From the sequence record OP744025: a DNA stretch of 64,000 nt. The stretch is one strand, 5' to 3'. Positions 1 through 55,204 of this stretch are shown in pieces. The stretch is from Escherichia phage A5-4. Both the position numbers and the translations under genes were made by a program. The notes beneath the pieces were generated by a model. The model did not search any database. It saw only the letters and a program-made list of their open reading frames with translations, and was not told the DNA's origin. Position 1 is the stretch's first letter. Each line of letters begins with the position of its first letter.

Positions 1-1488
1 ATGTCTGCTACATTCGCACCAGCGAGTCGAAAGCAACAAATGGTTCTCGAATCTGACGCACAAATAATGGTTATCGGTGGTGCAGCGGGATCAGGTAAGT
101 CCTACCTGCTCCAGTTGATGCCTTTGTTGATTGTAAACGACCCTAGAACAGCGTGTATCATGTTCCGTCGTACCGTCCCTCAGATTCGTGGACAAGGTGG
201 TTTGTTCGACAAAGCTAAGGATATTTACAACCAACTGCCTCCGGTAGTTAAGCCTAAGTTTAAAGAAAATGAAATGACTGCGACATTCCCTAACGGTGCA
301 ACCGTTAAGTGGCAGTCTATGCAACACGTAAGCGATAAATTCGATATTCAGGGGTTGGAGTTTACATTTATCGGTGTTGACGAAGGAACACAGTTTGAAT
401 GGGAACAATTGGAATATATGATGTCCCGTTTGCGTTCAAACTCCAAATACCCTTCTCGCATGGTGATCAGTTGTAACCCTGATCCTGACCATTATCTTCG
501 CAAGATGGTTGACTGGTATCTCGATAAGGATGGGTATCCTGATCCTGAAAAAGACGGTGTTATTCGTTATTTCGTCCGTGTGGATGACCAGTACATGTGG
601 GGAGATTCAATAGAGGAGTTGAAGAAACGTTATGGTAAGAAATGTAAGCCTGTATCGTTCACATTCATATCTTCCACTATTTATGACAACCCACCGATGC
701 TTATCAACAACCCCGAATACCTTGCTCAGTTGGAAGGTCTTAACGAGGTTGACCGTGCACGACTTCTTCATGGTAACTGGGATGCTCGTCCGCAGGGTGC
801 AAACTATTTTAAACGTTCTTTCCTCAAAAATGTAGATCATCTCCCGCTTAATTGCGACAAGGTTAGATCTTACGATAAAGCAGGTACAGAGCGTTCCACA
901 GGTAACAAAACACCTGACTTCACGGCAGGTATAGGTGTAGCGCGAGATCAGGATGGGTTCTACTACCTGTTCGGTGATTATTGTGATGAATTCGTTGATA
1001 CTGGCGATTGGTCCACTGGACAAGCCGGACGCTTCTGCAAAAAAGCAGGTGAGCGTGACAAGATTATTCTTAAACAGGCAATACATGACGGAGATGACGT
1101 TAGGATCATCTTCCCTGTTGACCCTGGTCAAGCAGGTCTATCCGAATTTACTACATCTTCTCGTGAGTTATTGAATCAAGGGTTCATGGTTGAGAAAGAC
1201 CCAACACCAGGTAACAAGAAGAAGCTTGTACGCTTCTCTCCGTTTGCTAACTTAGCACAGAACGGATTTGTACGGATTGTTGAGAAATCTTTTCCTATGG
1301 ACACATTAGAAGCTTTATTGAAGGAACTTGAATCTTTCGACGGTGAGAGGTCAACTGGATCACGTAAGGACGACTGGGTGGATGCCATCTCTTCGGGTAT
1401 TAACTATCTGGAGAAAACAGAAATTGTCCGTGCTGTTCCAATACCACGACCTCACGCCCCTACGATGTATTCCAGGTATAGACGATAA
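1..1488 (+). CDS. terL: Terminase large subunit
   Basis: Walker A GGAAGSGKS near N-terminus; 495 aa; immediately upstream of portal. Confidence 0.88.
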   Translation: MSATFAPASRKQQMVLESDAQIMVIGGAAGSGKSYLLQLMPLLIVNDPRTACIMFRRTVPQIRGQGGLFDKAKDIYNQLPPVVKPKFKENEMTATFPNGATVKWQSMQHVSDKFDIQGLEFTFIGVDEGTQFEWEQLEYMMSRLRSNSKYPSRMVISCNPDPDHYLRKMVDWYLDKDGYPDPEKDGVIRYFVRVDDQYMWGDSIEELKKRYGKKCKPVSFTFISSTIYDNPPMLINNPEYLAQLEGLNEVDRARLLHGNWDARPQGANYFKRSFLKNVDHLPLNCDKVRSYDKAGTERSTGNKTPDFTAGIGVARDQDGFYYLFGDYCDEFVDTGDWSTGQAGRFCKKAGERDKIILKQAIHDGDDVRIIFPVDPGQAGLSEFTTSSRELLNQGFMVEKDPTPGNKKKLVRFSPFANLAQNGFVRIVEKSFPMDTLEALLKELESFDGERSTGSRKDDWVDAISSGINYLEKTEIVRAVPIPRPHAPTMYSRYRR

Positions 1489-1503
1489 CTGAGGGGAATT
1501 ATT

Positions 1504-3036
1504 TTGAAGAAGAAGAATAAAGGTCGCAACACACAGGTTCGTAAAGCGACGAGCGAAGAATTAAACGTTGCTCGTTTACGAATGAGTGAGCAAGGTACTT
1601 TTGCTTTAGCTAAGGTTCAGGTGGAAACTGAACGTATGAAAGCTGAAGAAATTAAATGGCCTCAATTGATCGGTACGGTTGAAGCTATGAAACAAGATGC
1701 TACGGTAGCGACTGGTCTTGATATGCTTTACACTTTCGTAGAGAAAGCATTCAAGGACTTCAAAGTAATCCCTGGCAAATCTAAAGAGTCTCAAGACGCA
1801 GCAGAGTTCATTACCTTCTGCCTTCGTAACATGGAAGGTCAAACCCTGCGTCAATTTGCCCGTGACGCTGCCACATTTAACGAATACGGCATCTCTGTAG
1901 TTGAGAAGGTATATACTCAGATCCAGACTGGTGAATATGCAGGACGATTTAAGATTAAAAACCTTGCATTCCGTCCACAGGCTTCTCTGAGTCGTAAAAA
2001 CCCTCTCGTGTACAGCGATGATGGTTCTCGTGTTGTAGGTGTTAAGCAATCCCTTGATTCTTTCAAGAACTACACTGCCAGTCCTCTTGGCGCTTCTATT
2101 AGTGGCCTTATCGGCTCTCGTAAAGGCAATGACGTTGTAATCCCAGCAAACAAGCTGATGATCATGACTACTGGTGGTTCTTCTTCTCAAGCACTCGGCG
2201 TTTCCCCGTTGGTTGCTTGTTACCGACCTTGGCGTGAAAAGGTTCTTATTGAGAACCTCGAAGTTGTTGGTGCTACGAAAGACATGGGCGGCGTTATCGA
2301 ACTGAAGATTCCTTCTGCCATCCTTAACAAAGCTGCCATTGATCCTTCCAGCTACGAAGCAGAAATGGTTCAGGGTTTGATGATGGATGCTGCAAACGCC
2401 CACTCCGGTGAGCAATCTTTCTTTATGCTACCATCTGACGTTAAAGACAACTCACCTTTGTACTCAATGTCTCTGAAAGGCATTGATGGTATGGGTAAAC
2501 AGTACAGCACTCGCGACCTGATCAGTGATCGTAAGAAATCAATTCTTGATCGTTTAGGCGCAGGATTCTTGAACGTAGGTAATGATGCCTCTGGTTCATA
2601 CAACCTGTCGGAATCAAAACAAACTATCCATACTCAATTTGTACAACGTGTTAATGAAATTATCGCTGAAGCACTGAATGAAAACCTGCTCCCTCAGCTT
2701 CTGGCTCTGAACGGTATTCGTCTGGCAGAAAAAGAAATGCCATTCGTTAAATTTGGTCAGATCGTTGATACAGACATGGAAGGTTTCTCTAAAGCGGTTC
2801 AGCGTATGGGTGCTGTCGGCTACTTGCCTAAGACACCGGAAGTTATTAATCGCATTCTTGATGTTCTTGGAATCGATTATCAAGTTGGTGAAGATATTTC
2901 GCAAGAAGAACTTATGCTTCTCCTTGGAGATAATACCAGTCGTTCTGGAGATGGCTTTGCACAGGGGACTTCTGGAAACGGGACTGCAAAGATTAGCGGA
3001 ACAAGAGATAATTCAGTTTCTAATTTAGAAAATTGA
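1504..3036 (+). CDS. Portal protein
   Basis: 510-aa ORF directly after terminase; TTG start after GAGGGG RBS; position and size typical of portal. Confidence 0.7.
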   Translation: MKKKNKGRNTQVRKATSEELNVARLRMSEQGTFALAKVQVETERMKAEEIKWPQLIGTVEAMKQDATVATGLDMLYTFVEKAFKDFKVIPGKSKESQDAAEFITFCLRNMEGQTLRQFARDAATFNEYGISVVEKVYTQIQTGEYAGRFKIKNLAFRPQASLSRKNPLVYSDDGSRVVGVKQSLDSFKNYTASPLGASISGLIGSRKGNDVVIPANKLMIMTTGGSSSQALGVSPLVACYRPWREKVLIENLEVVGATKDMGGVIELKIPSAILNKAAIDPSSYEAEMVQGLMMDAANAHSGEQSFFMLPSDVKDNSPLYSMSLKGIDGMGKQYSTRDLISDRKKSILDRLGAGFLNVGNDASGSYNLSESKQTIHTQFVQRVNEIIAEALNENLLPQLLALNGIRLAEKEMPFVKFGQIVDTDMEGFSKAVQRMGAVGYLPKTPEVINRILDVLGIDYQVGEDISQEELMLLLGDNTSRSGDGFAQGTSGNGTAKISGTRDNSVSNLEN

Positions 3037-3102
3037 TCTTTGATTTAAATCAGACTCTTGCAAAACGAATCGTTCAGTGTTAAAATAAATATCACGGGAG
3101 CA

Positions 3103-3675
3103 ATGATGGAAAACATTACTATCTCCGACCTTCCTTCACAAACCTATCTGTCCCGAATTCAAAAGGGACGGGCTGTGAAAAAGGCCAATGAGCTACTTAA
3201 GCAGGGCTTCAATAAAGAAGCTTCTATTTCTGGAGCCATTGGCTCCGTTCTTGTTCAGAAATCTGCACAGAAAGAAGAGATGATTTCTTACGAAATTATC
3301 TACGAACCTGATACGCCGGATGCTCATGGACAATGGATGAGTAAAGAGACATTAGTTAAAGCACATGCAGATTTCAAGAAAGCTCAAGAAATCGGTGCGG
3401 TAACTGAAAACTTGTACCACTTGGTTGATACCGAAGCATTCAAGATCATAGATCATTGGATTCAGCCAGAAATTGATGTAACTGTCACACAAACAGGAGA
3501 AATCATAAAAGCAGGGTCATGGGTAGCAAAGGTTCAATATTCACCTGAAGTATGGGAGTTAAAGAAAGCTGGCATCGTCGGTGGATTATCTCTTCAGTGC
3601 GGTGGTATGTTGAATGAGGAAACAAATGAGCTATCCGATCTTGATTTCAGTATCGAATTGGAAGAGGAAGAATAA
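3103..3675 (+). CDS. XkdF-like putative prohead protease
   Basis: Motifs DAHGQW, GSWVAKV, GIVGGLSLQCGG resemble XkdF/DUF2213 family; ATG at 3103 after GGGAG RBS preferred over track TTG at 3058. Confidence 0.5.
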   Translation: MMENITISDLPSQTYLSRIQKGRAVKKANELLKQGFNKEASISGAIGSVLVQKSAQKEEMISYEIIYEPDTPDAHGQWMSKETLVKAHADFKKAQEIGAVTENLYHLVDTEAFKIIDHWIQPEIDVTVTQTGEIIKAGSWVAKVQYSPEVWELKKAGIVGGLSLQCGGMLNEETNELSDLDFSIELEEEE

Positions 3676-41336: not shown

Positions 41337-41696
41337 TTATGCTAAGTTAAATGTGGATTTGATCAGGTCAATAACCTCTTGTGCGTTGCTCTCCGACACA
41401 GATACCTGAATAATTTTAAGGTCGCTGACCTCTTCAAAGTATTCGAACTCAGATTCACGAAGTTCAAAGTACATTGCCCCACAGCCCACACTGAATGAAT
41501 CACACCCTACAGCGCCATCTTCTGTTGTGATGTTATTAACATACTCATCACCTTCGATCATGCTCATGTTGTTAACAATAAATCGTGGCCCGTGCTCATC
41601 CAGAAAAGAAACAATCTCGTGATTGTAACTTGGGTCAGCCTTAATAAATTTGTCTACGAGTTTTGGATTAAGTTTATAAGTTTTACCCACTTCCAT
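41337..41696 (-). CDS. Tandem paralog family member 2
   Basis: About 50% identical by eye to 41708..42082. Confidence 0.65.
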   Translation of the reverse strand: MEVGKTYKLNPKLVDKFIKADPSYNHEIVSFLDEHGPRFIVNNMSMIEGDEYVNNITTEDGAVGCDSFSVGCGAMYFELRESEFEYFEEVSDLKIIQVSVSESNAQEVIDLIKSTFNLA

Positions 41697-41707: not shown

Positions 41708-42082
41708 TTACGCCAGGTTAAAGGTAGCTTTAATCAAATCTAAAGTTTCTTGTGCATTACTACGAGAGACGGCAACCTGAATAATAACAGGGTCTTCATC
41801 TTCCCCGACTTCTTTGAAGAAGGGGAATTCACTCTCTGCAAGTTCAAAGTATACACACTTGTTACCTTCGCGGTCGTGAAAAACGTCACTACCTAAAGTA
41901 CCATCTTCAAATATGACATTGTTAACATATCTAACATTATCATAAAAGTAGGTGTTGTTGACAACAAATTTAGGACCGTGTTTATAAAGAAGATCAGCCA
42001 ATTCTTGATTGTAGCTAGGGTCCATACTAATAAAAGCTTTTTCTAAGTCTTTATTAAGAATATAAGTTTTTCCGATTTCCAT
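41708..42082 (-). CDS. Tandem paralog family member 3
   Basis: As above. Confidence 0.65.
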   Translation of the reverse strand: MEIGKTYILNKDLEKAFISMDPSYNQELADLLYKHGPKFVVNNTYFYDNVRYVNNVIFEDGTLGSDVFHDREGNKCVYFELAESEFPFFKEVGEDEDPVIIQVAVSRSNAQETLDLIKATFNLA

Positions 42083-43129: not shown

Positions 43130-43429
43130 TTAGTGACAATCTCCCCAGCTGTATCCACAAAGGTATTCTCCAGTTATCATCACTGGTGATTTCATCATCT
43201 TAGCTGCTTGTTCGACACAACGAACAACCATCTCTCCTACAGGGCAGTATGTAATAGTGAAGATACCATTTTCATCTGGATCACACTTAAACTTCCCTTC
43301 CTTCACGCAATGACCATCCAAGATCATTTTCTTAGCCAAGCAAGCTTCTACAAATTTCTTCGCGTCAGCTTCATTGTCAAAGGTCCAAGTCTTCTTAAAC
43401 TTGTGTGGCACTTCAAGCTGGTATTCATC
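43130..43429 (-). CDS. DNA polymerase (family A) 3' exon
   Basis: Begins DEYQLEVPHK (motif C, cf. Klenow HDELVFEVHKDD); ends ...GYSWGDCH (cf. T7 ...GPNWAICH). Confidence 0.65.
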   Translation of the reverse strand, partial: DEYQLEVPHKFKKTWTFDNEADAKKFVEACLAKKMILDGHCVKEGKFKCDPDENGIFTITYCPVGEMVVRCVEQAAKMMKSPVMITGEYLCGYSWGDCH

Positions 43430-44201
43430 CAAAAGTTTAACGAGGTCGTTACTCTCGCCCACATCATTACATGTTGCCATACGTTTTCACGTATGGATCG
43501 GACTATATCACCATCCTTTTCAGGATGCTCCCCATTTCGACGGCACTTGCTCGCCTACGCCTCTCGGCTAGTCTCTGAACGTTAGGACCATGTGTAGTCA
43601 CAAGAGATGTGTGTCCAGTTTTTACGGATTTTTATGGACCTTACCACGTTGTAAGGATAACCCATATCCCGAATCTGTGCACTTCCATAACCTTGCCCCA
43701 GGAAGTTGCAAATCTCTCTAACCTCTTCTTCGGTAACTATACTTCTGGCGTTATCAACCCCTGTTGCTGAACGACATTTATCAGCAAAGGTTTTCTTGAT
43801 ATTTCCACCACGAGTTGTCCATTGGAGGTTTGAATAGTGGTTATTCCTTTTGTCAGGCCACTTATGATCAACCTCCGGCAAACCTTCAGGGTTTGGTACA
43901 AAACACTCTGCCACCAAAACGTGAACAGCCTTTGTAGTCGTCCTTTTGTTGAGATACAGACTTACAATAAGATACCCACGTCCATTATCAACTGCCGCCA
44001 TTGGTTTCCCTCGACGACCTATAATGGTCCCGTCTTCATAAACCTTGTAACCGAAATAATCTTTATATTCCACATGATCCTCTTCGCTGCTGATTAACAT
44101 AGTCTCATACTAACTCACACTTGAATTAATATCAACCTTAGTCTTCCAGCAATTAAAGGAGTTTTCGATGTGAGTTACCTCACAAAGCCACAATGTTACT
44201 T
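43430..44201 (-). mobile_element. Group I intron in DNA polymerase gene
   Basis: Group I elements R (GTTCAGAGACTAG) and S (GATATAGTCC) flanking a P8-like hairpin; free-standing HNH ORF; exon ends in U, intron ends in G; splice restores YYHDEYQLEV. Confidence 0.7.
43582..44100 (-). CDS. Intron-encoded HNH endonuclease
   Basis: GYLIVSL motif plus HNH core LVAECFVPNP...VDHKWPDKRNN...NLQWTT. Confidence 0.75.
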   Translation of the reverse strand: MLISSEEDHVEYKDYFGYKVYEDGTIIGRRGKPMAAVDNGRGYLIVSLYLNKRTTTKAVHVLVAECFVPNPEGLPEVDHKWPDKRNNHYSNLQWTTRGGNIKKTFADKCRSATGVDNARSIVTEEEVREICNFLGQGYGSAQIRDMGYPYNVVRSIKIRKNWTHISCDYTWS

Positions 44202-46085
44202 ATGGTAATAGATAATACGTCTAACGCCTTCATCATACCAACCTTTCTTGACCAACTGCCAGTGCAGGAGGATACCCACCAAGTCAAACAGTGCAGCACC
44301 ACCATTCTGCTGATAAGCATTAAGCAATGAGTGTTTGGAACGAGTGTAGATCTTACGCCCATCCAGACCATAGATGAATCGCTTACCGTTAGCTTCCCAA
44401 AACTTCTCTAATGCTTCTTTACGACCTTTCAAGCCGATGTTGCTATCCCAGAATGCGTCGATTACTGCTTGGGCTTTCTCAAGACTGATACCAAGCATTG
44501 ATGCAATCTTCGCTGCCTGTGCCCCGTACATGATTCCGTATGTCACCCCTTTACCTTCGCCACGAGAAACCTTCTTCCCTGCTGCTTTGGTATATGCTTC
44601 TGCGTTTCGGGAGTGAGCATCTCCAGATTCCATGATACGAAGATAAGCACCGCCATCGAAATCATAAGCGCCCCATGCTGCGATCATGCCTTCCAAGTTT
44701 GAACCGTCGATACCTACCTGATATTTACCCTCAGAGGCTCTGAATAGTTCACGCATCTCTTTACCGAGAAGAACTTTCTCATCCGGCTTAGGTACGTTTG
44801 CTACGATCGTATGCTTACGACGACCTGTGTTAGTTATTCCACTATAACGGGCCGGAAGTTTACCGTCAACTCGTAGACGTGGATGGTTAAGCCATCCGGT
44901 ATCAACCTTCTCTTCTTTCAGCGGGTCAAGAACAGATCGTCGGTTACGTAAAGACAGCCATTTAACAATCTGTTTAGCCATTTCACCATCTACTCGCTCA
45001 AGGTTAGGGCAAAGACCTTGCTGATCCTTAAGTTGCGGGGATGTTGGCAATGCACGAGCTTTCTTACGGAAAAACTTGAACATCTTTTCTTTATCTGACC
45101 ACTGCTTAGGTGTGATCGCCAAGCTTTTCAGAATCAGATCACGATACTCCGTCTGATCCAAATCTTCAATGTATTGACGAACAATCAGATCAACCTCACT
45201 ATCAGGACGCTGTTTCTTGAACTGATCTTTAGTTGCATCCTTTGTACGCCAAATTGTTGGGACCCACCCTGCATCACGGATCAGGAACTTCTTAACGTCG
45301 TCCTGGTTACCAATACGCATCGGAATCATAATGTCCGGCATCTTTTGTTCTTTGATATCCATCAAAGCACGAGCCATATCTTCCGGCGGCAAAGGAACAA
45401 GTCCTTGCTGCTTAACGTTTTGTGCACGGATAAAATCACCCATTTTGGATTCATCCTCTACACCGTGCTCAACACAATACTTGATCGCGGCGGCAGTAAG
45501 AGATCCGTCAGCCTTAAACGGCTTACTTGGTGCACCTTTAAACTCCAAGGCTTCCCAATTGATATTATAACCTAACTTCTCTAACCATTTCCAACCTGTA
45601 CCGGAAAGAGATCCATCACCCTTGAAAGGTTTAGATGGGAATGTCGGTTGTGCTGATTTCGACATCTCTTTCTTCGGCAACTTAGGTTCAACCTCTAACT
45701 CAATGTCTGTCATCATCTTATCGATACGATCACGAAGCTTGAGTGCTTTTTCTTCATCAAATGAAACACCCTGAATTTCTTGCTCAATCATCAGGTAGTC
45801 AGTCAACATACCTCGACGCAGGGCATTCTTCCAGTTGATCATTTTATACTTCTTCTGATCTTTGTCTGTTTCATCCTTATACATGAAGCGTTTATCATCC
45901 GGCATAGATTCACAAGAGATCTCTTTCATCAGAGCATCCCATACCATTTCGTTGATAATTACGTCTTCAATAATACGATCGCAATACTTCCAAAGTGGAA
46001 GGCCACGCCAATCTTCGATCGCCACTTTCTGGTTAGCTACTCGCATACCCCAAGCTTCAAGCCCGTGTGGCCCTACAGGCTTCAT
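44202..46085 (-). CDS. DNA polymerase (family A) polymerase-domain exon
   Basis: HGLEAWG (cf. T7 HALEAWG), Exo III-like DRIIEDVII, motif A/B region, ...GVRRIIYYH at exon end; track ORF reads through to stop at 44196. Confidence 0.75.
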
Positions 46086-46531
46086 TTTACCGTGACGGGG
46101 TTCTTTACCATCTCAGGACAACCGCGAGGCAGAGGGCGATCTGGATACAGTGTACGGGACATTGAAAGTGTATCGAAGATGTTTACTTGTTTACCATTAA
46201 TCGTACCCATGCAACCAGGGTCTGCAAACATATCGTAAGTTGTTCCAAGCATCTTCTTAAACAACTGGAGGTCGTAGCCGAAGATGTTGTGGATAGCAAT
46301 TGCTTTAGGCTCTGTGACAAACCACTCGTTTAATTCCTCAATGGTCCGAATCTTAAAGTTTTTACCTTTAGATTGGATAAATTTAACAGCTTGATCGTAA
46401 CCTTCCCGCTGGGGATCAAGAAAGATGTTCCAGTTATCTTTTTTATACTCTTTAAACAAGACGCAGTGAATCAGATCAACCTCTGTCAATAGACCATTCG
46501 CTTCCGCATCTCCAATAAATAAGCCTTTCAT
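46082..46531 (-). CDS. DNA polymerase N-terminal 3'-5' exonuclease segment
   Basis: Exo I DAEANGL and Exo II HNIFGYD; ATG at 46531 after AAGGAG RBS preferred over track start 46555; 4-nt overlap with next ORF in a different frame. Confidence 0.65.
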   Translation of the reverse strand: MKGLFIGDAEANGLLTEVDLIHCVLFKEYKKDNWNIFLDPQREGYDQAVKFIQSKGKNFKIRTIEELNEWFVTEPKAIAIHNIFGYDLQLFKKMLGTTYDMFADPGCMGTINGKQVNIFDTLSMSRTLYPDRPLPRGCPEMVKNPVTVK

Positions 46532-46604
46532 TTTTTCTCCTTCTTCAAGCTCCAACTAGACTAAAACAAAGCCCAGCCGGAGGTATGACCCTTCGGCTAG
46601 GTTA

Positions 46605-52313: not shown

Positions 52314-52409
52314 TTGTTTTCTCCTTTCTGTTTGGTATGGGAGAAGTATAGGGAAGTTTGATGAGGGTGTCAATAGAAAAAACCGCCCGAAGGCGGTTTA
52401 TTTTTAGGA

Positions 52410-53519
52410 TCAGAAAGGTGCGTCGTCGTCCCAATCATCCGGCTCTGTGTCCGGCACATCAGGAATATCACCTGTGGATTCAACGATACTTTGTTGTTCC
52501 CACGTAGGTTCTTCTGAAGGTTGTTCCATTTCTTCCATAACCTTCTTGATCTCTTCCTCTTGCTCACGCAGGAAGTTATCATCCGGCTCAGGAATATCTT
52601 CCTCTTTAATATCTGAACGAGTGAGATCACTGTTTTGTTCAGACAGAGGTTGAATCTCTGCTGCTTTAGGCTTAAAGTCTGGAGAACGATGATCATCTTC
52701 TGGATGAGCGGCATACCACTCACGAAGAGTTTCATAAGGACTCTCTAAGAAGCCCTCTGGCGGTTCCAGATAATCACCCGTGTCAATGTCATAGAACACA
52801 GGGAATTTACCAGCACGACCGTGTTTACGGTCATCCAGAATAACAAAGTAAGAAGTGTTACGTTGTTTCATCGGGAGTTCTGGATCTTTGTTACGTTCAA
52901 TACCCCACATGTAATAAGTGTTACGCATCATTGCACGGCTACCAGCAAACTGCGCTGACTGGACTTGACCACCAAATTCATGAGGCTTACCAGATTCAGG
53001 CTTGTTAAGGTGACAGAAGCAATAATAGGTAAAGCCAAGCTCTTTTGCCAGTTTGGAGATCTCATCAGAGAATCGTTCCAGTTCCTGGTTAGCTTCGGAA
53101 GCACTCATACCTTGCACAAGACGAGTGATTGGGTCAATAAAGATATCTTCACAACCTTCTACGATCACTGCGTGACGGATAGCACCTTTCAGTTCATCCC
53201 ATACTGCACGACCATAGTTGTTATAATAGATAACACTATCACCAACTTCATCAGTAGCCTTGATCAGTTCTTCTTGCTTAAAGTAGCCACGTTGACCTTC
53301 AAATACTTCATTACCCCAAATGTCACGGAAAGTTCCATCTTCTTGAGGAATCATTACCTTTTCTGCGTTAACAAAGTCTTTATGATAACGCTTACCTGCG
53401 ATCTTTTTACAGGTAATTTCGTTCTCTTCTTCAAACTTAAACACCGCAGCCTTTGACTTCTCAATACCTGTAATGTGTTCTACCATCTGGTTAAGAAGTT
53501 CAGACTTACCCATTTTCAC
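52410..53519 (-). CDS. Primase-helicase (T7 gp4-like) 3' exon, helicase core
   Basis: Begins within Walker A (V)KMGKSELL; CFCHLNKPESGKPHEFGGQ matches T7 ICHLKNPDKGKAHEEGRP; acidic tail ...DDWDDDAPF. Confidence 0.75.
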   Translation of the reverse strand: MKMGKSELLNQMVEHITGIEKSKAAVFKFEEENEITCKKIAGKRYHKDFVNAEKVMIPQEDGTFRDIWGNEVFEGQRGYFKQEELIKATDEVGDSVIYYNNYGRAVWDELKGAIRHAVIVEGCEDIFIDPITRLVQGMSASEANQELERFSDEISKLAKELGFTYYCFCHLNKPESGKPHEFGGQVQSAQFAGSRAMMRNTYYMWGIERNKDPELPMKQRNTSYFVILDDRKHGRAGKFPVFYDIDTGDYLEPPEGFLESPYETLREWYAAHPEDDHRSPDFKPKAAEIQPLSEQNSDLTRSDIKEEDIPEPDDNFLREQEEEIKKVMEEMEQPSEEPTWEQQSIVESTGDIPDVPDTEPDDWDDDAPF

Positions 53520-54268
53520 CGTTATGTTCGACAGGGTTCGCTACTCCCTGCCCGTTCTCTTACGAACTGCTACATGTCCCCATGCAGACCAGACTATATC
53601 TTCAACCTGTTTCCAGGTGCTATGCACTTCGGACCGCTTGGCCCTACTCTACTCGATTCAAGAGTCTAGCTCTTGTCTTTCGATAGTCGTTGCTCCTTCC
53701 TCTCAACCGCTTTGTAATTTGTCTTACGGTATCTCTGTGTATCCCAAAATGCTCTGCAATTTCTTTTTGTTGAAGCGTGGTATTAATAACCATTTCGTAA
53801 ACCTGCTTCTCAAAATCATCAGCATATCTATTTGGATTTCTTCTACCGTTGGCCCAACCATGATCGACATTTTCTTTCGTGGTTGTCCATTCCAAATTAA
53901 CATCGTTGTTGTTTTGCCTGTCGCTATCTTTATGATTAACAACAGGAAGGTTATGAGGGTTATCAACGTAGTGTTCAGCCACCAATTGGTGAATAAATCT
54001 ACGTGTAACCTTACCATCTTTACTTAACGAAACTCTAAGATACCCTGAACTATTGGTATCCGGTTTGAGTTTTTTAAGCTTCCGGTAAACATCTCCCCTT
54101 CGGGTAATGATGTAATTTTCAAAACCTTTTATTCTTTTCATTTCCCCCCCTTGCAATAAACAAAGAGGTTGAGAGGCTTGGATCAGGATTACGTGTTCTA
54201 CGCTTCCCCTGAGTTCACATAGTATTTAGTCGAGGCATCTCTGCCAAGGCTGGCTAGACTTAATGTTT
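53520..54268 (-). mobile_element. Group I intron in primase-helicase gene
   Basis: Intervening block splits the P-loop; S element GATATAGTCT and P8-like hairpin CACCTG-GAAA-CAGGT downstream of HNH ORF; splice as GAG|VKMGKS fits U-before/G-last rule. Confidence 0.65.
53644..54156 (-). CDS. Intron-encoded HNH endonuclease
   Basis: GYLRVSL plus LVAEHYVDNP...VNHKDSDRQNN...NLEWTT; paralog of 43582..44100. Confidence 0.75.
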   Translation of the reverse strand: MQGGEMKRIKGFENYIITRRGDVYRKLKKLKPDTNSSGYLRVSLSKDGKVTRRFIHQLVAEHYVDNPHNLPVVNHKDSDRQNNNDVNLEWTTTKENVDHGWANGRRNPNRYADDFEKQVYEMVINTTLQQKEIAEHFGIHRDTVRQITKRLRGRSNDYRKTRARLLNRVE

Positions 54269-55204
54269 ACCAGCACCGATGAAGTAACCTTCACCTGGAC
54301 GACGACCCAAGGTAAGCTTGGTCATGGTGGGCCAAGGGAACTTCTTGCCGAGTTTAGGGATCTCATGTGCCTTTTCGCGGAACTGTGAATAAGTCGAGAA
54401 ACCATCCGGCACATATTCCTTTGGCTTCATTGCAGCCCAAAACAACTGATCAGAAAGTCCTTTGTTATACATGTCGCAAGGGTCCATATCTTCTGGAATG
54501 TCCACGACCTTCATTTGTGGAATTACAGAGTATACCGCTGCAACTGCATCTTTACCTTTCATGATCCCTTTGGCCTTCTCTGCTTCTGTCGCACGGTCAG
54601 CATCGAAAGCTACGATAATCTCTTCAAACTTACTCAGAAGCTTATAGTTATTCTTCTGTGATAAGTTTTGCACGGCATTGGATGTACCGTTAGAGATAGA
54701 TACAACTGTGAAGTTTGGTTTACGAGTGGAACCATCCTTCGGTTTGTACTTCTCTGTCAATACCTGCCACAAGATTGCAGCATCATATTCACCTTCAGTG
54801 ATAAAGATCATACGTTTGGAAGACTTATTTGCACCTTCCAGCCCAAACATATCACAAGCCACAGATTGGAAACCAATAGTTGTAAAGTGACCTTTCTGTT
54901 GCTTAGGGATCGTAAGATCACGCTTCTTAAAACCTACAACCTTACCTTCTAATGTATACGGGAAATAATGTGCTTCTGGTGTCATACCGTCTTTAGCTGA
55001 CAGTTTGGTACGAATACCAAATCGTTTAGCTGTCTTTTCGTCGATACCGCGCTCAGGGATACTTTTGCACGGGTAAGTCAATACGTCTTCAACTGTTTCT
55101 TCTACACGAGACACACCACCACCATAATTACGTGCTACTGAAGCTTTAGGATTTTTATGTCCAAACTTATAACCGCCAAACAAACTTTCGCCAATAGTGC
55201 TCAT
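54269..55204 (-). CDS. Primase-helicase (T7 gp4-like) 5' exon, TOPRIM primase part
   Basis: TOPRIM IFITEGEYDAAIL and VAFDAD; ends ...GEGYFIGAG at start of Walker A; no zinc-ribbon Cys motifs. Confidence 0.7.

Follow-up and report, generated by a model that had tools for sequence, protein, structure and literature searches.

The 64,000-nucleotide (nt) stretch of Escherichia phage A5-4 DNA analyzed here (record OP744025; hereafter the window) carries a gene for a primase-helicase resembling gp4 of phage T7. The coding sequence is interrupted within the Walker A motif, or P-loop, of the helicase by a 749-nt insert, which we propose to be a mobile group I intron that houses an HNH endonuclease gene. 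Coordinates are positions in the window, and the genes of the locus lie on the minus strand. Read 5′ to 3′ along that strand, the layout is as follows, with the endonuclease gene nested in the insert.

54269..55204, minus strand: exon 1, 312 codons, the Toprim primase part, ending ...GEGYFIGAG with GGU (from the open reading frame list and the match to phage A73)
53520..54268, minus strand: predicted group I intron, 749 nt, with no counterpart at precisely that point in phages A73 and LTH01
53644..54141, minus strand: endonuclease gene, 165 amino acids, ATG at 54141, with a G-rich Shine-Dalgarno sequence at 54152..54144
52410..53519, minus strand: exon 2, 369 codons, starting GUG AAA AUG GGU AAG UCU (VKMGKS), encoding the SF4 helicase domain and, at the C terminus, an acidic tail

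The upstream open reading frame (ORF; 55204..54260, minus strand) has the C-terminal end ...GRRPGEGYFIGAGKH-stop (GEGYFIGAGKH), and the downstream ORF (53519..52410, minus strand) begins (V)KMGKSELL, which is the rest of Walker A. An original prediction, made from the letters of the sequence, had named both ends and the HNH ORF between them, had placed an insert of about 750 nt at 53520-54268, and had read the junction as GGT^GTG, that is, YFIGAG^VKMGKSELL, where ^ marks the splice point. The two ends and the HNH ORF are all present on the minus strand. The insert starts with AAACAUUAAG and ends ...GAACAUAACG, and the exon-1 frame meets a UAA two codons into it (nt 7-9), inside what would be the P1 loop. 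When the two pieces are searched separately, the Pfam matches to Toprim (exon 1) and DnaB_C (exon 2) are both sub-threshold.

The limits of the insert are set by uninterrupted alleles. In a megablast search against phage genomes, the window groups with a few Vequintavirinae of E. coli. The gene is whole in A73 and LTH01, where it is 2046 nt long and annotated as ‘DNA primase/helicase’. The same insert is found by megablast in A7_1 (97.5% identical) and UPEC06, and W70 has at the same site an ORF-less intron of 283 nt, which matches the window at 100% of the intron positions that the two have in common. Alignment of the window with A73 leaves 749 extra bases in the window, 54268..53520, in agreement with the predicted extent. 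The DNA comparison alone leaves a 1-nt ambiguity at the boundary (A73 GGG GUC versus GGU^GUG in the window), which is resolved because only GGU^...G^ gives a U before the 5′ splice site and a G at the intron end. Residues 1-312 encoded by exon 1 are identical to residues 1-312 of A73, and joining 54269 to 53519 gives a 681-residue protein with no amino acid difference from A73. That is, the spliced exons differ from A73 at 39 nucleotides, and 39/39 of the differences are synonymous. The predicted ligated junction is ...GGUGCUGGU^GUGAAAAUG..., so that the spliced reading ...YFIGAG^VKMGKSELL recreates ...FIGAGVKMGKSE....

The 681-residue protein matches the T7 gp4 structures 5IKN and 6N7I (E=2e-20, residues 51-528). 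In both the crystal and the cryo-electron microscopy chains, ...gegyfigagvkmgksell... aligns over T7 ...GEVIMVTSGSGMGKSTFV... without a gap, and the Walker A alignment across the junction, gagvkmgks over TSGSGMGKS (AGVKMGKS/SGSGMGKS), is likewise gapless. The T7 P-loop had been misquoted in the original prediction as VTAGSG; T7 actually reads VTSGSGMGKSTF. Given the A73 and LTH01 alleles together with the gapless alignment to T7 gp4, it follows that the predicted junction is correct and that joining the exons restores Walker A. On these comparisons, the host gene is a T7 gp4-like (SF4) primase-helicase, in which a Toprim domain is followed by a RecA-type helicase whose Walker A would be intact once spliced.

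Since SF4 helicase P-loops are a known insertion point for inteins (DnaB site b; PMC4760082), an intein, or another protein-level element excised after translation, is a natural alternative. It is refuted by the in-frame UAA after two codons and by the insert length, as 749 nt is not divisible by 3. Moreover, the ORF begins at a start codon of its own, and its product has an HNH/HTH fold, not the motifs of a Hint domain. We give this explanation practically no weight.

Removal at the RNA level, by a group I intron, accords with the fold assigned to the insert, as follows.

54249..54274, minus strand: P1, exon GCUGGU (54274..54269) with guide GCCAGC (54254..54249), 6 base pairs (bp), U.G wobble at the 5′ splice site
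54222..54216, minus strand: P3 5′ strand, CUAUGUG; P3 paired in 96-100%, both-side changes in 5/7 pairs
54212..54207 with 54188..54183, minus strand: P4, UCAGGG/UCCUGA; 96-100% paired, both-side changes in 2/6
54203..54200 with 54194..54191, minus strand: P5, GCGU/ACGU; 96-100% paired, both-side changes in 2/4
54182..54180 with 53696..53694, minus strand: P6, UCC/GGA; covaries
54176..54167 with 53708..53699, minus strand: P6a, CCUCUCAACC/GGUUGAGAGG, perfect 10 bp; covaries; closes the loop that holds the endonuclease ORF
53689..53685, minus strand: P7 5′ strand (element R), CGACU within GCAACGACUAUC, 3 nt past P6; partner AGUC(U)G at 53595..53590
53683..53653, minus strand: P7.1, an extended hairpin, from the minimum-free-energy fold of the W70 copy
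53644..53631, minus strand: P7.2, GGGCC-AAGC-GGUCC; fully compensatory across relatives
53626..53620, minus strand: P3 3′ strand, UGCAUAG
53618..53605, minus strand: P8, ACCUG-GAAA-CAGGU hairpin
53604..53596, minus strand: J8/7, UGAAGAUAU
53595..53590, minus strand: P7 3′ strand, AGUCUG
53587..53570, minus strand: P9; 100% paired, both-side changes in 3/7
53567..53554, minus strand: P9.1
53551..53531, minus strand: P9.2; 100% paired, both-side changes in 5/6

The fold was scored on 12 cores, with their ORFs excised, from Vequintavirinae, Autographiviridae, Pakpunavirus, Grimontviridae, and Acinetobacter phages, aligned with MAFFT. The structure scored was P3-P4-P5-P6-P6a-P7-P7.2-P8-P9-P9.1-P9.2; the controls were 500 shuffles and partners slid by 1-3 columns. 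The 5′ splice site of Acinetobacter phage KEN_02 is placed 3 nt early in this alignment (A2), which touches unscored P1 columns only. Standard pairs fill 95.1% of cells, and 32 of the 55 pairs have changed on both sides, covariation values that are reached in 0/500 shuffles; slid partners pair at 29-41%. Thus, the check by covariance analysis that the original prediction had called for came out in favor of a group I fold. The same nested helices are returned by RNAalifold when it is run without a supplied structure. P8 is mis-registered in the MAFFT alignment (62.7% paired), and a P8 hairpin, with differing sequences, forms in each of ten relatives folded singly. P1 helices, read by hand, also differ in sequence, and each ends in U.G in ten relatives (9/11 aligned, plus the second intron of W70). 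In the divergent UPEC06 copy at the same site, P5 and P9.2 have changed in a compensatory way, so that the helices are kept. The terminal base, 53520, is G, as the original prediction had it, and the intron is G-ended in all 12 aligned relatives.

P7 is the catalytic-core helix whose assignment differs from the original prediction, which had taken AGACT, near the HNH stop, as the partner strand. The P7 strand is instead CGACU (53689..53685). The rejected AGACU (53667..53663) is in the P7.1 loop, reads AAGCU in UPEC06 while AGUCU is unchanged there, and would leave a J6/7 of 26 nt, whereas the family-invariant CGACU fits 3 nt after P6. AACGACUA is the same in each of the 12 relatives, 4/5 P7 pairs never vary, and Rfam places the homologous CGACUA of Klebsiella phage Roth32 on AGACUA of the model; because P7, like J8/7, is invariant, its assignment draws on conservation and the Rfam alignment rather than on covariation. 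Two other elements named in the original prediction stand. The S-like element at about 53592-53601, GAUAUAGUCU, is the J8/7-P7 element (GATATAGTCT, 53601..53592), which provides the sole perfect GAAGATATAGTC in the window, and the hairpin ACCTG-GAAA-CAGGT at 53618..53605 is P8. For P3, a pairing CUCGA/UCGAG with a GUGC-AUA-GCAC hairpin was tried and dropped for CUAUGUG/UGCAUAG, which covaries in 5/7 pairs and is in the centroid fold; the minimum-free-energy structure, unlike the centroid fold, pairs a P3 strand with J8/7.

Introns of subgroup IA2 in the Michel-Westhof scheme have two additional helices, P7.1 and P7.2, that separate P7 from the P3 3′ strand. By the placement of P7.1/P7.2 (CGACU to UGCAUAG), rather than by a dedicated classifier, the predicted architecture is of the IA2 type. 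The final approximately 22 codons of the endonuclease ORF overlap the 3′ strands of P6a and P6, P7, and P7.1. In W70, a short CCUU-GAAA-AAGG hairpin stands in for the ORF-bearing P6a.

The core is far from unique, with matches in about 660-670 phage records. Pakpunavirus DNA polymerase genes are among them, and one record annotates Intron_gpI, at 74.6 bits. Experimental support comes from members in Pectobacterium phage CB7. Nucleotides 576-747 of the window intron are 72% identical to CB7 1180-1347, which makes up the 3′ portion of the terminase intron of that phage, and the terminase, DNA polymerase, NrdA, and NrdB introns of CB7 splice, as seen by reverse transcription PCR (RT-PCR) and cDNA sequencing (PMC7344957). 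The CB7 introns belong to the same core family (72-84% identical across the 90-170 nt at the 3′ end), reside in a member of the Vequintavirinae, hold an HNH ORF, and interrupt genes for DNA metabolism or packaging at conserved motifs. They differ in host gene and site, the CB7 primase-helicase being uninterrupted at the P-loop, and in that their splicing has been seen by RT-PCR, whereas the window intron is known from sequence. Phage rV5, the type phage of the subfamily, is likewise reported to have terminase introns together with a gp4-like protein that is uninterrupted (PMC3606486).

The ORF product aligns with the homing endonuclease I-HmuI (PDB 1U3E) at E=1.4e-14 over residues 2-106 (phmmer) and with PHROG 59, ‘HNH endonuclease’, at E=4e-43. 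The Pfam matches fall just under the curated cutoffs, HNH_3 with 21.4 bits (cutoff 24.8) and HTH_28 with 24.0 (cutoff 25). On this evidence the product is an I-HmuI-like HNH homing endonuclease, with a predicted N-terminal DNA-binding sheet and a C-terminal helix-turn-helix. I-HmuI is encoded by the DNA polymerase intron of phage SPO1 and nicks the intron-less target. Its N-terminal DNA-binding sheet and HNH motif align to the window ORF; the differences are that SPO1 is a Bacillus phage, so that host gene and host phylum are other ones, and that the window ORF has Asn at the equivalent of Asp74. A promoter scan inside the intron gave matches no commoner than in shuffled sequence. In A7_1, the G-run before the endonuclease ATG (equivalent to window 54152..54144) is longer by one base, AAGGAGGGGG versus AAGGGGGGG in the window, and is a better Shine-Dalgarno match; endonuclease expression may be tuned at this point.

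Comparison with the UPEC06 copy (84.8% amino acid identity) gives a ratio of nonsynonymous to synonymous divergence (dN/dS) of 0.07 at a dS of about 1.5, so that the endonuclease protein is under purifying selection. The dS of about 1.5 for the ORF (54141..53644 versus UPEC06 locus 1632..2129) is to be set against a difference of 2.5% in the exons and about 9% in the intron core; therefore, the endonuclease gene, the intron, and the host gene appear to be separate in history. In Pseudomonas phages, other endonuclease types occupy the same P6a loop. ORF-less and ORF-bearing copies at one site, along with the varied endonuclease types, fit independent invasion of P6a by endonuclease genes.

The exons next to the insertion point carry a haplotype that goes with the intron.

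54311..54269 and 53519..53503, minus strand: intron-linked exon haplotype, -43..+17 around the junction, 60 nt

This 60-nt tract holds 11 of the 39 synonymous differences between the window and A73, all of them at -43..+16 (Fisher p=5e-9). LTH01 has 10 of the 11 in common with A73, plus two more in the tract, and the intron-bearing A7_1 and UPEC06 equal the window from at least -139 through the tenth base of exon 2. Related primase-helicases (amino acid identity of 70% or more over the P-loop region) occur in about 40 records, of which W70, A7_1, and UPEC06 alone have an interrupted gene. The junction haplotype is likely a co-conversion tract or a set of target-site variants that escape cleavage; a sharp junction-linked haplotype with sporadic presence is the signature classically expected of homing.

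It might be argued that the intron splices and yet is immobile, the HNH ORF being an inactive passenger or having another role and the haplotype reflecting ordinary recombination. The Asn (VVNHKD) in place of I-HmuI Asp74 is in line with this, as is the persistence of the W70 intron without any ORF, and cleavage by the ORF product is so far a prediction. However, the NH(K/I)D form is common to the related intron ORFs of VL73, ULINTec6, and Cronobacter phage vB_CsaP_009 (Cs009), and a dN/dS of 0.07 over a dS of 1.5 points to long-term selection on the protein. The sporadic occurrence among very close relatives and the sharp bounds of the haplotype also argue for mobility, and we consider an immobile intron improbable.

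Taken together, the insert is best explained as a mobile self-splicing group I intron of the IA2 type, with an I-HmuI-type HNH gene in its P6a loop, located inside the Walker A sequence of the T7 gp4-like primase-helicase of a Vequintavirinae coliphage; we put the probability at roughly 0.93. The intron-less alleles, the covariation from P3 to P9.2, and the score of the W70 twin on RF00028 bear out the original prediction of a group I intron with an HNH endonuclease that splits Walker A. The Rfam scan proposed there gave a divided result. The ORF-less W70 twin scores 70.4 bits on RF00028 (gathering score 50), and two ORF-less Klebsiella relatives, Roth32 and RCIP0099, score 84.7 and 70.6 bits, whereas the whole window has no Rfam match at the gathering threshold. 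In E-value mode, a second, partial RF00028 match at 54212..54119 (10.9 bits) is the P4-P6 part.

Several points weigh against this explanation. The window copy itself reaches just 24.6 bits on RF00028 (53760..53570; E=6e-4 in a 1-kb search; gathering score 50). P2 has just 4 bp, and no convincing P10 pairing was found, the best being 3 bp between exon-2 GUG and CAU at intron nt 4-6. One HNH-containing insert of CB7, called an intron by the authors, was unspliced under their conditions (PMC7344957), so that family membership alone is no guarantee of activity. Splicing of the window intron is read from its sequence and its homologues, and the endonuclease activity and cleavage site are predictions. 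The low score of the window copy is probably due to the 468-nt ORF insertion in P6a, and the core is not a chance resemblance, because it is homologous to hundreds of phage records and covaries strongly.

The unspliced CB7 insert and the score below the Rfam gathering level would also suit a gene that has been split permanently by a non-splicing insertion, that is, an HNH gene and a dead intron remnant, with primase and helicase polypeptides that assemble. The GenBank records of A7_1, UPEC06, and W70 list the pieces as separate coding sequences, and exon 2 has possible GUG or AUG starts. The mobE-split nrdA of Aeromonas phage Aeh1 reportedly gives two polypeptides that assemble. Here, however, the break is within Walker A (GAG^VKMGKS), so that neither piece has a whole P-loop, and no Shine-Dalgarno sequence precedes GUG 53519 or AUG 53513, the upstream sequence being CGAACAUAAC. 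The core is intact and identical to that of the W70 copy, which scores above the RF00028 gathering level, and in UPEC06 compensatory changes preserve it; the exons differ from the uninterrupted allele only synonymously. With the P-loop broken, exon 2 lacking a ribosome-binding site, and the core intact and maintained, a non-splicing split is very unlikely.

For the spliced gene, we propose the following course of events. The primase-helicase exons and the intron would be transcribed as one pre-mRNA, on which translation of unspliced exon 1 would end two codons into the intron. The folded intron would bind free guanosine in P7, and the guanosine would attack after the exon-1 U; the freed 3′-OH of exon 1 would then attack past the terminal G, ligating the exons. 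Guanosine-dependent splicing with exon ligation draws indirect support from the identity of the ligated sequence with the intron-less allele and, by analogy, from the CB7 homologue. The 165-residue HNH enzyme would be made from its own ATG and Shine-Dalgarno site. In a co-infection, it would nick or cut intron-less primase-helicase alleles near the P-loop site, and repair off the intron-bearing copy would transfer the intron with some tens of flanking exon bases, that is, homing with co-conversion.

The classical IA2 introns are those of T4 td, nrdB, and sunY, which have P7.1/P7.2 between P7 and P3′, a GAUAUAGUC J8/7-P7 element, an ORF that loops out of a helix at the periphery, and a stop codon a short way past the 5′ splice site. 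The window intron is likened to them by general description. They differ from it in having GIY-YIG or other endonuclease types and in residing in nucleotide-metabolism genes.

Closer counterparts by position are P-loop introns in Klebsiella phage Roth32 and Escherichia phages ULINTec6/7 (Autographiviridae) and in Cronobacter phage vB_CsaP_009 (Grimontviridae), at the following locus coordinates.

1150..1365: related P-loop intron of Roth32
1478..2265: related P-loop intron of ULINTec6
1235..2055: related P-loop intron of Cronobacter phage 009

The split is at GV^GKT, in the Val codon, in Roth32 and ULINTec6/7 and at GG^GKT in Cronobacter phage 009, 8-9 nt 3′ of the window site, and the internal guides of Roth32, ULINTec6, and Cs009 are changed to match their own sites. 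Related HNH ORFs, with 35-50% amino acid identity to the window ORF, are present in ULINTec6 and Cs009; ULINTec7 also has an HNH ORF, and the Roth32 copy is ORF-less. The ULINTec6 intron is annotated only by an automated ‘Phage intron’ note. In the literature searched, we found no description of an intron in a phage primase-helicase P-loop, including those of Roth32, ULINTec6/7, and Cronobacter phage 009.

Related introns thus occur at three nucleotide positions within 9 nt in three families (Vequintavirinae, Autographiviridae, and Grimontviridae), with guides re-tuned. It is tempting to propose, though only tentatively and as the less probable case, that the P-loop coding sequence of gp4-like SF4 helicases is a recurrent landing pad for one IA2 intron lineage. 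The repeated P-loop GGU codons may put several U^G splice contexts on offer.

A second HNH-containing group I intron interrupts the same gene in W70 (OP778610, locus 2064..2860, minus strand), in helicase motif H4. It splits GSRAMMR^NTYYMWG, has the P1 GAUGCGU/GCGCAUC, scores 24.7 bits on RF00028, and has no counterpart in the window. DnaB inteins are inserted in the P-loop (point b) and in motif H4 (points a and c) (PMC4760082). They are alike in being selfish elements with a homing endonuclease in the same SF4 helicase motifs; in contrast to the window element, which would act at the RNA level and has in-frame stops, they are in frame and excised as protein. On the tentative landing-pad reading, with the W70 H4 intron added, group I introns would mirror the DnaB intein points motif for motif.

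Other loci of the window deserve mention. The DNA polymerase gene is split by another group I intron (43478..44211, minus strand; RF00028 42.9 bits, E=1.3e-7, below the gathering score), which is presumably the ‘first’ intron implied by the original prediction. The ORFs at that locus are 46085..44196, 44100..43582, and 43480..43130 (minus strand), and its 172-residue HNH protein is 41% identical to the HNH protein of the primase-helicase intron. A 157-residue ORF (46082..46555, minus strand) has a four-base overlap with the start of the 629-residue DNA polymerase ORF (44196..46085). Ten bases past the primase-helicase stop lies a terminator-like bidirectional hairpin (52399..52380, within 52345..52405); after it, on the minus strand, comes a sequence that agrees with a sigma-70 promoter at 11/12 positions (52373..52345). 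The adjacent ORFs 41337..41696 and 41708..42082 (minus strand), of 119 and 124 amino acids, are clearly paralogous (MEVGKTYKLNPKLVDKFIKADPSYNHEI... and MEIGKTYILNKDLEKAFISMDPSYNQEL...), which points to tandem gene duplication.

The window intron is an unannotated new case of a common, well-known kind of element, and it changes nothing in the accepted workings of group I introns or homing endonucleases. Since ORF-bearing introns fall below the Rfam cutoff, automated pipelines miss them. Records list the primase-helicase as two or three ‘hypothetical’ fragments, the A7_1 record covers the endonuclease gene with a ‘hypothetical protein’ on the plus strand, which is the wrong one (2615..3118), and the record of Cronobacter phage 009 (1358..1849) labels the HNH gene ‘major capsid protein’. 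In the window phage, A7_1, UPEC06, and W70, the primase-helicase would be better annotated as one spliced 681-residue product. Near-identical phages offer, at one site, an intron-less allele, an ORF-less intron, and two divergent forms of intron plus endonuclease, a set that lends itself to measurements of homing and co-conversion and of how endonuclease genes are gained or lost. If sites do shift by guide-directed reverse splicing into the GGU repeats, rather than by endonuclease homing, the P-loop introns would be a natural system for intron retargeting. With the window intron, the helicase P-loop joins the conserved motifs targeted by phage introns, in parallel with the DnaB inteins.

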